7,049 bases of DNA. Origin: a virus. Its lineage: Duplodnaviria > Heunggongvirae > Uroviricota > Caudoviricetes. The notes beneath the pieces were generated by a model. That model ran no database searches, had not been told where the DNA came from, and saw nothing but the letters and a program-made list of their open reading frames with translations. How positions within the stretch are numbered: the stretch's first letter is position 1; the number at the start of each line of letters is the position of its first letter. The stretch lies in IMG/VR virus record IMGVR_UViG_3300014682_000012, one strand, 5' to 3'. Below are positions 2,782-7,049 of this stretch, piece by piece. Made by a program: the position numbers and the translations under genes.

Positions 2782-3852
2782 TTACCCCCTGAAGCCCGGT
2801 GGAATTTCGGTATCCGGTTCAGAAATATGATTCACACAACGCTGGTTGTTCGTGCCGCTTACCGGGAGCAACCAGGGGTTTTCAAAATTCCGGTCCGGTC
2901 CAAAAAACGTCGTCGCTCGCTGAACAAATTCCGTTCCCGTTTTCCCGGTAGCCGCTAGGTATCTTGCGTAACGCCTCACACCATCCAGCATGGCCTCTGG
3001 TGGCACCCCCTCGCGTAATCTGGCCTTCCAGGCACTGAAAGCGGATTTCTTCGGGTTTGCCCCGGCACGCAACGGGTATTCCCGCCAGACCTGTTCGAAC
3101 ACATCCGGATAATCCACTCGTCCCACAGGCTGCCCGGTGTTTTCCGGGACTACCCGATCGGCTTCCCGCTGAATGGCGGAATCGGCTTCAGGCTGCTGCA
3201 GTTGGTGTGATTGCTCCGGCCTTGCGGTCATCACCTGCTGCACAGCGCCCGAATCGGCTTTCAGCGCATACGCTGAATCGGCTTCCGGTGTCGTGCCTGC
3301 TGGCTGACCAGGATTGACGGTCTGAACATCCCCTGCCTGGTTCGTGGCGTTTTTTACGCCATGGACCATAGTGTTTTGATCTTCTTGATCTGTATCTTTA
3401 TCTGTATCTTTATCTGTCGTGACTCGTCGTGACATGTGCGTGACATTTCGTGACGCGCCGTGACAATCTCCATTTTGTTCCCGCTTTCTTTCCCTCTCTC
3501 GCTGCGCCCTCTTGCGCTCTGCAGGAGATTTTGCGGTTTGCGAAATATTGCCGTTGTCCTCTTTAAGCACCTGGCGTTTTTCCCATCCAGTGATTAAATC
3601 ACCATCAAGTACCCGCCCCTGCATCGTCTGCAAAATTGAATCAATTACCTCTTCTGTCACGTCGAGCGCACTTGCCAAATCTTCTGTCGTGACATCAATG
3701 TGACCTCGCGTGACATTTCGTGACGCGCTCACCAGGAGGTGGATATACACTGCCATCACTGTTGCAATTGGCTGCCCTGACACCCTGGCAATTGTTCGCC
3801 ACTTAGGGTCATTTGGCATGTCATGCCATAATCTGAGCCAGGCGTTAGCCAT
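2782..3852 (-). CDS. Phage replication initiator-like protein (N-terminal winged-helix-like region, low-complexity acidic linker, conserved C-terminal YdaU/DUF1376-like domain)
   Basis: Long ORF (track 2782..3858 begins at GTG; ATG at 3852..3850 has a GGTG RBS). N-terminus MANAWLRLWHDMPNDPKWRTIARVSGQPIATV..., C-terminus DYPDVFEQVWREYPLRAGANPKKSAFSAWKARL...FFGPDRNFENPW. It lies after cro-like and cII-like genes as in lambdoid phages, and carries internal iteron-like repeats. Family assignment is from memory. Confidence 0.75.
   Translation of the reverse strand: MANAWLRLWHDMPNDPKWRTIARVSGQPIATVMAVYIHLLVSASRNVTRGHIDVTTEDLASALDVTEEVIDSILQTMQGRVLDGDLITGWEKRQVLKEDNGNISQTAKSPAERKRAQRERERKREQNGDCHGASRNVTHMSRRVTTDKDTDKDTDQEDQNTMVHGVKNATNQAGDVQTVNPGQPAGTTPEADSAYALKADSGAVQQVMTARPEQSHQLQQPEADSAIQREADRVVPENTGQPVGRVDYPDVFEQVWREYPLRAGANPKKSAFSAWKARLREGVPPEAMLDGVRRYARYLAATGKTGTEFVQRATTFFGPDRNFENPWLLPVSGTNNQRCVNHISEPDTEIPPGFRG
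3361..3464. repeat. Ori-like module inside the initiator gene: AT-rich segment with two GATC sites and a 12-bp tandem repeat (TCTGTATCTTTA, about 2.5 copies), followed by five CGTGAC hexamers phased at 10-11 bp
   Basis: CGTGAC begins at 3418, 3428, 3439, 3449 and 3459. GATC at 3369 and 3378. Tandem repeat at about 3380..3415. The DNA repeat encodes the TDKDTDKDTD linker. Confidence 0.6.
3656..3728. repeat. Second iteron-like array: one inverted GTCACG plus four direct (C/T)GTGAC hexamers at 10-11 bp phasing, including an exact 21-bp copy of GCGTGACATTTCGTGACGCGC also present at 3438..3458
   Basis: Hexamers begin at 3688, 3699 (TGTGAC), 3709 and 3719; inverted copy at 3656..3661. The 21-bp exact repeat is at 3708..3728 and 3438..3458, 270 bp apart. 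Confidence 0.55.
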
Positions 3853-6130: not shown

Positions 6131-6265
6131 TAGCTAACCAACGAAGCTAAGGTTGGTAATTAAGGAGTTCTCCACGGGTGAGGTGGAGTGCGTGCGCCGG
6201 ACACGGGTGAGCATCCGGTACGTTCTTTAAAAATCTGGATAGTCCCAACTTATTTAAACGGTTAA

Positions 6266-6697
6266 TTATCTTGAGTTCATCCAGAACTTATTATTGCAAG
6301 CGGGGCAAAAAGTACGAAAATGAGCATCAAAGCGCATTATTTCCATTGGCTGAAGTACAGATATTACCTTTTTTCCAAAACATTGTGGGCAAAGATGCAC
6401 AGTTATCTCAGTATCGCCTATAAATTGCTTCTTGGAATATACAAGGGTTCCAGAATCAAGCTTGTTAAGCTTGTAACCTTCCGCCTGTCGCTGAAAATCT
6501 TCTGTCTCTGCAATTTTTGCTTTGAGATGCATTATCTCTTCATCACGAAAGCGGATCGCATCGCAAAGAGAGAAGCATTCCGCCTGAAGCGTGATTAGTT
6601 TGTTCTGAAGTTCAATAGTTGCGGCTTTAACTTCTGCATCCGTTTTTGCGTCATTAATAACCTTAGCGAGACCAGCTGTCTCCTTTATCGCAGCCAT
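6266..6697 (-). CDS. Hypothetical coiled-coil plus zinc-ribbon protein (about 143 aa), antisense to the dicB-type operon between ydfC and dicF
   Basis: Minus-strand ORF (track 6266..6826), most plausibly starting at ATG 6697..6695 (alternatively the in-frame GTG at 6724, or further upstream). Alanine/lysine-rich predicted helical N-terminus, then HLCPQCFGKK...FRTFCPACNNKFW (two CxxC pairs about 22 residues apart). GC about 40 percent, against about 55 percent in flanking DNA. Own promoter upstream. Confidence 0.5.
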   Translation of the reverse strand: MAAIKETAGLAKVINDAKTDAEVKAATIELQNKLITLQAECFSLCDAIRFRDEEIMHLKAKIAETEDFQRQAEGYKLNKLDSGTLVYSKKQFIGDTEITVHLCPQCFGKKVISVLQPMEIMRFDAHFRTFCPACNNKFWMNSR

Positions 6698-6737
6698 AGC
6701 CGCTGACAGTTCTGCTATCACGTTGAGTACTCTTCTC

Positions 6738-6790
6738 GTTGTTGGGGATATCCGGATTATACAAATTTCTTGTTGTTGGGGAATAACAGG
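6738..6790 (-). promoter_or_regulatory. Putative leftward promoter with extended -10 (TGTATAAT), flanked by two copies of an 11-bp direct repeat
   Basis: Minus-strand TATAAT at plus 6761..6756 with TG immediately upstream. Weak -35 (ATTCCC at 6784..6779). The repeat GTTGTTGGGGA on the plus strand (6738..6748 and 6772..6782) covers the predicted +1 and -35 regions. Confidence 0.4.
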
Positions 6791-6970
6791 AACCACCTCG
6801 CCTGACGTGGTTAAAAGCAGGCACACAACGCGAAAGCGTACGGCGAGGTAGCTGGTTTATAGATAGCCTGTCGTTAAATTTTCGTCGACCGTGCGCTTCC
6901 GGTTGTGGCACTCCGCGAAATGGCGCGGCGGTAAGTATGGCGGGGTTATTCCTTCCCCGTTGAGGACACC

Positions 6971-7032: not shown

Positions 7033-7049
7033 TTTCTGGTGACGTTTGG
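7033..7049 (+). ncRNA. dicF: 5-prime end of DicF sRNA (partial; continues beyond window end)
   Basis: TTTCTGGTGACGTTTGG matches my recollection of the first 17 nt of E. coli DicF (UUUCUGGUGACGUUUGGCGGUAUCAG...). Location downstream of ydfA-ydfB-ydfC on the same strand matches the Qin dicB operon. Only 17 nt are visible. Confidence 0.5.

Follow-up and report, generated by a model that had tools for sequence, protein, structure and literature searches.

Two short direct repeats flank a TATAAT hexamer upstream of a minus-strand gene in a 7,049-nucleotide stretch of caudoviricete DNA (IMG/VR record IMGVR_UViG_3300014682_000012; "the window" in what follows), which raises the question of why a promoter should carry two copies of the same sequence, one on either side of its -10 element. 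An earlier note on this DNA took them for the operators of a repressor that occludes the promoter. Comparison with related prophages leads us to a different answer: the repeats are most likely parts of a promoter and antisense-RNA cassette of the sieB/sas type known from phages P22 and lambda, and probably not sites for a repressor.

The repeat pair, its promoter and its gene

The 11-mer GTTGTTGGGGA occurs exactly twice in the window, both times on the + strand (6738-6748 and 6772-6782), and each copy is the core of a 16-nt repeat with one mismatch (TTCTcGTTGTTGGGGA at 6733-6748 and TTCTtGTTGTTGGGGA at 6767-6782), the distance from start to start being 34 bp. The pair lies 17-61 bp upstream of the GTG start of the minus-strand gene, and the hexamer at 6756-6761, whose reverse complement is TATAAT, falls between the copies. 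The description in the earlier note, of two 11-bp copies 34 bp apart with a minus-strand TATAAT between them, is thus confirmed from the window sequence. If 6756-6761 is taken as the -10 element, the proximal copy occupies about +1 to +16, with the distal one at about -18 to -33, so that the arrangement that the note proposed, with one copy over the predicted start and the other over the -35 region, holds for a start placed by prediction. Dinucleotide-preserving shuffles of the window contained an exact repeat of at least 11 nt within 50 bp in 17 of 300 cases (~6%); judged from the window alone, the repeat is therefore weak evidence and only suggestive. Coding repeats were rejected, as no reading frame runs across both copies, the period being 34 bp (33 in relatives) and 34 not being a multiple of 3.

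The TATAAT at 6756-6761 (minus strand) would serve as the -10 hexamer of a cargo promoter of the PsieB type. Its -35 element is poor (ATTCCC or TTCCCC, within the distal repeat), and for this reason a simple consensus promoter scan of the window called no site at the repeats. Relatives have TAATCT, TAAACT, TATGTT or TAACAT at the equivalent place. A TAnnnT hexamer stands between the copies in all 76 distinct double-repeat (type II) cassettes, and in 71 of the 76 it ends 5-7 nt before the proximal copy, a spacing from which we predict that transcription starts just after TATAAT and that the mRNA of the Rip1-like gene opens with the ~16 nt of the proximal copy (6733-6748, minus strand, reading TCCCCAACAACgAGAA). 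The leader also contains a Shine-Dalgarno-like, purine-rich stretch, GAGAAGAG (6730-6737, minus strand), of which GAGTA is conserved in Rip1-type loci.

Known regulatory signatures gave no alternative account of the site. The signature of promoters activated by lambda CII, TTGC-N6-TTGC flanking the -35 region, was absent from the window sequence when it was read by eye, and of the sites for sigma-32, sigma-E, sigma-54, LexA, DnaA, ArcA, Fur and CII none fits both subfamilies (again by eye). As candidates for a + strand promoter of an antisense RNA, TACTCT-like hexamers were rejected, being present in Rip1-type loci and P22 and absent with other cargo; the search for such a promoter found no convincing -35 element.

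The gene behind the promoter (6266-6721, minus strand; PGAP CDS WP_000559912.1) encodes 151 amino acids and belongs to PHROG 1244, a family without known function. Distant homologs have ATG or TTG at the position aligned with its GTG start (6721). A search of solved structures matched residues 5-146 to residues 15-155 of Rip1 (PDB 9oox_L, E=6e-12), a full-length similarity that includes the C-terminal CxxC...CxxC region, and searches against Pfam and PADLOC (2023) returned nothing above cut-off and no SieB domain. By these matches the minus-strand gene is a full-length Rip1 homolog and a candidate pore-forming anti-phage protein. Rip1 is a prophage-encoded single-protein defence that forms a pore on meeting the rings of phage portal or small terminase, with ring activation and pore formation described for the Pseudomonas protein only (review PMC13434031). 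The cargo of the window and Rip1 (Patel et al. 2026; PDB 9oox) have in common a helical N-terminal half, the CxxC...CxxC motif and a prophage location; their identity is low, by eye roughly 25-30%, and a defence activity of the cargo is a prediction. Whereas the Pseudomonas Rip1 gene lies between terminase genes, the gene in the window lies antisense in an early-left operon, behind a cassette of the sas type.

Over the 850 bases that were searched, the window agrees to 99.8% with a Qin-like lambdoid prophage that is integrated at potC in E. coli GB089. Gene order is ydfA-ydfB-ydfC-[cargo on minus]-dicF-dicB-exonuclease-xis-int, with the early-left operon on the + strand, and against K-12 Qin the region ~6222-6825 is an inserted module. 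DicF starts at 7034, so that the last 16 nt of the window (7034-7049, + strand) are its beginning, and on this transcript strand the repeats precede dicF by ~250 bp. Other short repeats occur elsewhere in the window: an exact 10-nt direct repeat, CACGGGTGAG (6173-6182 and 6202-6211), lies just downstream of ydfC and is also present in K-12 Qin, and a 12-nt tandem duplication (~3388-3411) lies inside a 358-aa minus-strand ORF, a DnaT-like replication gene.

Relation to the sieB/sas region of P22 and lambda

A BLAST search against phages aligned window positions 6765-6825 with P22 11461-11401 (82% over 61 nt), and the ~105 bp upstream of the cargo are a homolog of the P22/lambda region that holds the sieB promoter and the sas antisense RNA. 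By RNA-seq of infected Salmonella, P22 sas extends over nt 11387-11513 (PMC13397905, Table 2), and the P22 stretch that aligns with the window lies inside this RNA. Projection of P22 sas through a related locus (L210) places a putative sas-like antisense RNA at approximately 6717-6835 on the + strand of the window; its presence and its ends in this prophage are what we infer from the homology. P22 has the order gene 24 (the N analogue), sieB antisense, ral, and lambda and the K-12 Rac prophage have the same layout upstream of sieB.

The window and the P22 and lambda loci have several features in common: a cargo gene that runs counter to the early-left (PL-type) operon of the lambdoid phage or prophage around it; upstream of that gene, a -10-like hexamer between two direct repeats with a period of 34-35 bp; and, on the operon-sense strand, a GGGG-loop hairpin that includes the distal repeat and is followed by a 3' block. 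In P22, a discrete operon-sense RNA covers exactly the corresponding region in infected Salmonella. There are also differences: the repeat is GTTGTTGGGGA in the window and CTGTAGGGGT in P22 and lambda, the -10 element of the window is a perfect TATAAT, and the cargo is Rip1-like and not SieB (PF14163), with no Esc-type internal product evident. Since the SieB domain was confirmed in cargo of the P22 type and is missing from the Rip1-like cargo, the cassette of the window is a swapped-cargo relative and not a sieB locus.

The function of the P22 region is known in outline. Ranade and Poteete (1993) reportedly used RNase protection and a -10 mutation to map the sieB promoter, and are said to have identified the lambda sieB promoter by homology; P22 without the switch was, by the same account, killed by its own SieB. 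The sas RNA pairs with sieB mRNA, translation is switched from SieB to Esc, and P22 needs this antisense control to avoid SieB (reviews PMC12197685, PMC7067206). In K-12 Rac (L325), the same cassette lies unannotated upstream of sieB at 3065-3171, with the block variant GCCCGG/CCGGGC, and the annotated small RNA KilS (2906-3003) starts ~60 nt further on, on the operon-sense strand.

To follow the repeats across relatives, we used 85 Rip1-type loci from genome and viral collections together with four E. coli loci. All four E. coli loci and 83 of the 85 Rip1-type loci have both copies in front of the gene, 32-35 bp apart (mostly 33-34), and the two loci without the pair are one truncated homolog and one cut contig; a truncated homolog without the cassette (L012) was set aside as uninformative. 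Among cassettes built in this way, 76 to 84 distinct ones likewise carry both copies. The repeats are accordingly not due to chance, and the pair is no accidental duplication that homologous prophages lack, which the earlier note had named as the finding that would undo it. One locus (L086) has kept only the part from the distal copy onward and so sets the limits of a minimal unit. The homologs, 49-99% identical at the protein level, come from Kluyvera, Edwardsiella, Citrobacter, Kosakonia, Serratia and viral contigs, and the ~125 bp upstream of their start are far better conserved than the coding sequence, with no codon periodicity. They belong to prophages with DicA-, RacR- or LexA/S24-type repressors, and are always opposed to the early-left genes.

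We also scanned viral contigs for the cassette independently of its cargo. A pattern of ATTCCCCAAC-N22/23-ATATCCCCAA matched at least 120 loci; among the 120 matches listed, a Rip1-like gene came next in 74, other genes in 45, and one was a chance match. Scanning with the conserved block ACCACNTCAGGCNNGGTGG likewise yielded at least 120 loci. Overall, the genes behind the block fall into at least 40 unrelated protein clusters, SieB (PF14163) among them. By this sequence evidence, the cassette is a portable module that serves unrelated cargo in lambdoid prophages. Three loci (L034, L039 and L073) carry two tandem cassettes, each with its own cargo and with differing loop sequences, and in L034 the second block lies ~240 nt past the end of the Rip1-like gene.

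The sequence GCCTGyCTTTTnACCACnTCAGGCnnGGTGG is also found in a single-hairpin form (loci L213-L320, e.g. L216 4469-4560 and L305 7790-7880), where the block reads as an extended -10 promoter directly before many small unknown genes; the cargo families behind either the single- or the double-hairpin form number at least 40. In these single-hairpin (type I) relatives, the block and a following TGGTATnCT read as a -35 and an extended -10 element, and a promoter scan of one type I cassette returned TTTACC-16-TATACT with TG. The predicted start then falls in the hairpin loop and the Shine-Dalgarno sequence in the 3' arm. The type I -10 element is lost in the double-repeat form (type II), the window included, and here the distal copy has the look of a leader left over from the duplication of a promoter-leader unit.

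A hairpin on one strand and matched repeat alleles

On the + strand, which is the operon-sense strand, the distal copy (6767-6782; UUCUUGUUGUUGGGGA as RNA, including GUUGUUGGGG) supplies the 5' strand and the GGGG loop of a hairpin, SL2 (6767-6792), that has an 11-bp stem (6767-6777/6782-6792) and its loop at 6778-6781. SL2 is present in both the minimum-energy and the centroid folds of the + strand and absent from the fold of the minus strand, and the fold of P22 sas contains the same hairpin. In an alignment of 40 double-repeat cassettes, four of the five pairs of the SL2 upper stem show changes on both sides, and standard pairs fill 97.5% of the cells of the tested structure, as against ~35% when the partners are slid. 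At one SL2 position the commonest pair is G.U, where the opposite strand would have a C.A mismatch. For the basal stem, single- and double-hairpin cassettes together provide at least 20 different versions, every one of them perfectly complementary. The operon-sense hairpin is the stabler one in 88 of 101 distinct sequences (mean -8.3 vs -5.5 kcal/mol; Wilcoxon p=1e-13, a value that overstates independence because the sequences are phylogenetically related). Since the compensatory changes and the G.U pairs fit the + strand only, the distal copy points to an RNA element. Around the proximal copy, no hairpin equivalent to SL2 is conserved, and the folding energy of the whole molecule is no better than that of shuffled sequence (z = -0.09).

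SL2 is followed by the conserved block (6793-6825, + strand), which corresponds by homology to the 3' domain of P22 sas, marks the right end of the inserted module and, as DNA, reads as the promoter of the single-hairpin relatives. It holds two inverted repeats, CCAC 6793-6796/GUGG 6807-6810 and GCCUG 6800-6804/CAGGC 6818-6822, whose interleaved order is compatible with a pseudoknot. Variation in the block is sparse and comprises a few compensatory changes, the L082 variant and the Rac variant GCCCGG/CCGGGC. Rfam has no family over the repeats or over the P22 sas region, the only match being a truncated DicF at 7034-7049.

Two further features of the block were seen. A 13-nt inverted repeat (6795-6807/6837-6849; ACCTCGCCTGACG / CGTACGGCGAGGT) means that the block could pair with the Qin-specific sequence downstream, and such pairing might play a role in processing of the dicF precursor. 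Separately, columns 82-83/101-102 of alignment A3 (window 6798-6799 and 6817) vary together, with CCACC-UC-GCCUG accompanied by AAAAG-CAGGC and CCACC-GA-GCCUG by AAAAGACAGGC, a linkage that the two proposed block stems leave unexplained.

The repeat itself varies among lineages while its two copies agree. We found five alleles, CCCCAACAAC, CCCCTACAG, CCCCAATGCA, CCCCCACAA and TTCCACAGTCAA (the first two also written TCCCCAACAAC and ACCCCTACAG), with matching copies and periods of 32-35 bp. P22 and lambda have CTGTAGGGGT twice in the operon sense with a 34-bp period, K-12 Rac has the P22/lambda allele with one mismatch and a period of 35, and other cassettes carry CCCCAATGCA twice, CCCCCACAA twice or TTCCACAGTCAA twice. 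Column-wise identity in alignment A3 was blurred by a one-column offset in the TTCCACAGTCAA allele, and detection of exact repeats was used instead. The allele follows neither the immunity repressor nor the cargo. Matched copies could also stem from independent duplications in different lineages.

Several known post-transcriptional systems were considered for the repeats and rejected. As targets of GcvB/Hfq, the mRNA-strand repeats read (AAN)4 and CAACAACA, and the lambda/P22 allele, CCCCUACAG, has neither; anti-sRNAs of the AgvB type sit in the late PR' region; and CsrA GGA sites (ACAAGGAU), present in most relatives, are missing from the subfamily of the window.

Proposed antisense silencing and its alternatives

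The reading that we prefer, with a probability of about 0.5 for the whole chain, is that a sas-like antisense RNA silences the Rip1-like gene by pairing of a hairpin loop with the 5' end of the mRNA. In the lysogen, the Rip1-like gene would be expressed from its own weak promoter, with its good -10 and poor -35 elements. Once the early-left operon fired, whether through induction or through a related phage entering the cell, the antisense RNA would accumulate, with SL2 and the structured 3' block, both on the strand that the operon transcribes, as its parts. The distal copy would lie upstream of the mRNA start and outside the mRNA, and because the two copies are identical, the loop and 5' strand of SL2 would be complementary to the first 8-16 nt of the mRNA. 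The GGGG loop would contact the mRNA 5' end, pairing would run across the leader and the Shine-Dalgarno region, and translation would be shut off, with the outcome that the phage avoids triggering its own abortive-infection protein. In this scheme, the distal copy would provide complementarity over and above that which the proximal copy has in cis as a matter of course.

Predicted binding of the leader to the part of the antisense RNA without cis overlap is -17.7 kcal/mol, compared with -7.8 +/- 2.9 kcal/mol when the distal 11-mer is shuffled; because the repeat builds this energy in, the calculation indicates only that pairing is feasible. An antisense RNA that covers the proximal copy already matches the leader in full, so that the need for a second site is not obvious. 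There is a likely parallel in IS10, where the hairpin loop of RNA-OUT reportedly pairs first with the extreme 5' end of RNA-IN (Kittle, Simons, Lee and Kleckner, 1989), and pairing is then said to spread down one strand of the stem and to block the ribosome-binding site. The single-hairpin relatives have this same geometry, with the start site opposite the loop. The window differs in that its loop lies 34 bp from the start site and owes its complementarity to a duplicated copy and not to direct overlap, and it has neither sequence homology with IS10 nor a transposase.

The first alternative, which we regard as rather unlikely, is that the repeats are the relic of a tandem duplication of a promoter-leader unit, the copies being retained separately and without interaction: the distal one for the SL2 stem, the proximal one as initial transcribed sequence or leader, with the alleles arising from separate duplications. 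This would agree with the type I cassettes, in which the start falls in the hairpin loop and that loop resembles the repeat (CCCTACAAC, CCCCACAGC, CTCACACA), and with a faint similarity across the rest of the 34-bp unit (~7/18 positions, by eye). It is harder to reconcile with the commonest allele, where TCCCCAAC is identical in both copies although the flanks, the spacer (33/34 bp; TATAAT/TAATCT) and the cargo have diverged greatly. Moreover, the differences between the copies of that allele build up away from the CCCC/GGGG end, as nucleation at the mRNA 5' end predicts.

A second alternative places the switch within the operon-sense RNA, where the two copies would compete for the 3' strand AAUAACAGGAA and so alternate between SL2 and a long-range helix, modulating the processing, stability or read-through of the early-left transcript upstream of dicF and leaving the mRNA 5' end untargeted. 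Co-variation of the SL2 5' strand, the SL2 3' strand and the proximal copy fits such a switch as well as it fits antisense silencing, the 16-nt repeat spans the whole SL2 5' strand, and the block is able to pair with the downstream Qin sequence. The local hairpin, however, should beat a helix that closes a ~40-nt loop, and it dominates the predicted fold. The P22 homolog is known to act as an antisense regulator of translation, and the cassette stays constant while its downstream context varies among loci, which together make a switch of this kind improbable in our view.

Protein operators, the reading of the earlier note, would have a repressor or activator bind direct repeats at about -26 and +8 and gate RNA polymerase in the style of the P2 C repressor; this now appears quite improbable. 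In phage P2, direct-repeat operators of the C repressor flank the -10 element of the Pe promoter, an arrangement that the window shares in having its -10 bracketed by two direct repeats. The copies overlap the -35 region and the start site, both are strongly conserved, two sites would be expected to change in step if a DNA-binding protein co-evolved with them, and an activator is conceivable because the -35 element is poor. In P2, however, the gene of the cognate repressor adjoins the site, whereas the window has no accompanying regulator and its distal copy shows covariation of the RNA type; stem covariation on one strand and G.U pairs are needless for a site in duplex DNA. The same allele goes with three unrelated immunity repressors (of the DicA, RacR and LexA/S24 types) and with many cargo genes, no protein accompanies it, and lambda and P22 share an allele despite their different repressors. 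Further copies of GTTGTTGGGGA, for which the earlier note had suggested a search, are absent from 18.8 kb of the prophage and from the intergenic region at immunity. As the allele is independent of repressor and cargo and has no other copies in the prophage, a dedicated repressor is unlikely, and regulation by a host factor would leave the five alleles unaccounted for. Autoregulation by the gene product is likewise unlikely, since the same repeats precede unrelated cargo, and the cargo here is a predicted pore-former, not known as a DNA-binding protein. What stands of the original proposal is the bracketed -10 element, strong selection on the repeats and an apparent dedicated control of the gene; occlusion by a repressor at operators is unsupported.

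A chance repeat without function, for all that repeats of at least 11 nt within 50 bp arise in ~6% of shuffled windows, is a negligible prospect given conservation of both copies across genera, in at least 76 distinct cassettes and at a fixed period.

No annotation marks the cassette in K-12 Rac, in lambda or in the matching E. coli record, and it is absent from Rfam. Searches of full-text literature with the repeat strings returned unrelated primers only, and the cassette sequence is absent from the EcOnc sRNA supplements of Tree et al. We make no claim of novelty for the repeats themselves, which the 1993 sieB/sas papers of Ranade and Poteete may describe; in the literature covered here there appears to be no description of the Rip1-type cargo, of the range of cargo or of the allelic series.

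We suggest, tentatively, that the duplicated 8-16-mer may be the address code of a large, uncatalogued family of prophage antisense RNAs that have SL2 and the block as their scaffold and act as an early-left self-immunity switch. The loop would then be complementary to the mRNA start of any abortive-infection or exclusion gene that lies behind the cassette, be it SieB, a Rip1-like protein or a member of at least 40 other families, and firing of the early-left operon would silence the phage's own suicide genes. The five codes seen would decide which incoming relatives can disarm the resident defence. If the antisense reading is right, it points to a way in which a prophage could harbour a Rip1-type pore, set off by portal or terminase rings, and yet not be killed by it when induced, a question of self-protection that concerns many prophage-encoded abortive-infection genes. 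It would turn an observation made on a single phage in 1993, that of P22 sas/sieB, into a widespread modular cassette, behind which the genes would be candidate defence genes and which could itself be used for their discovery.
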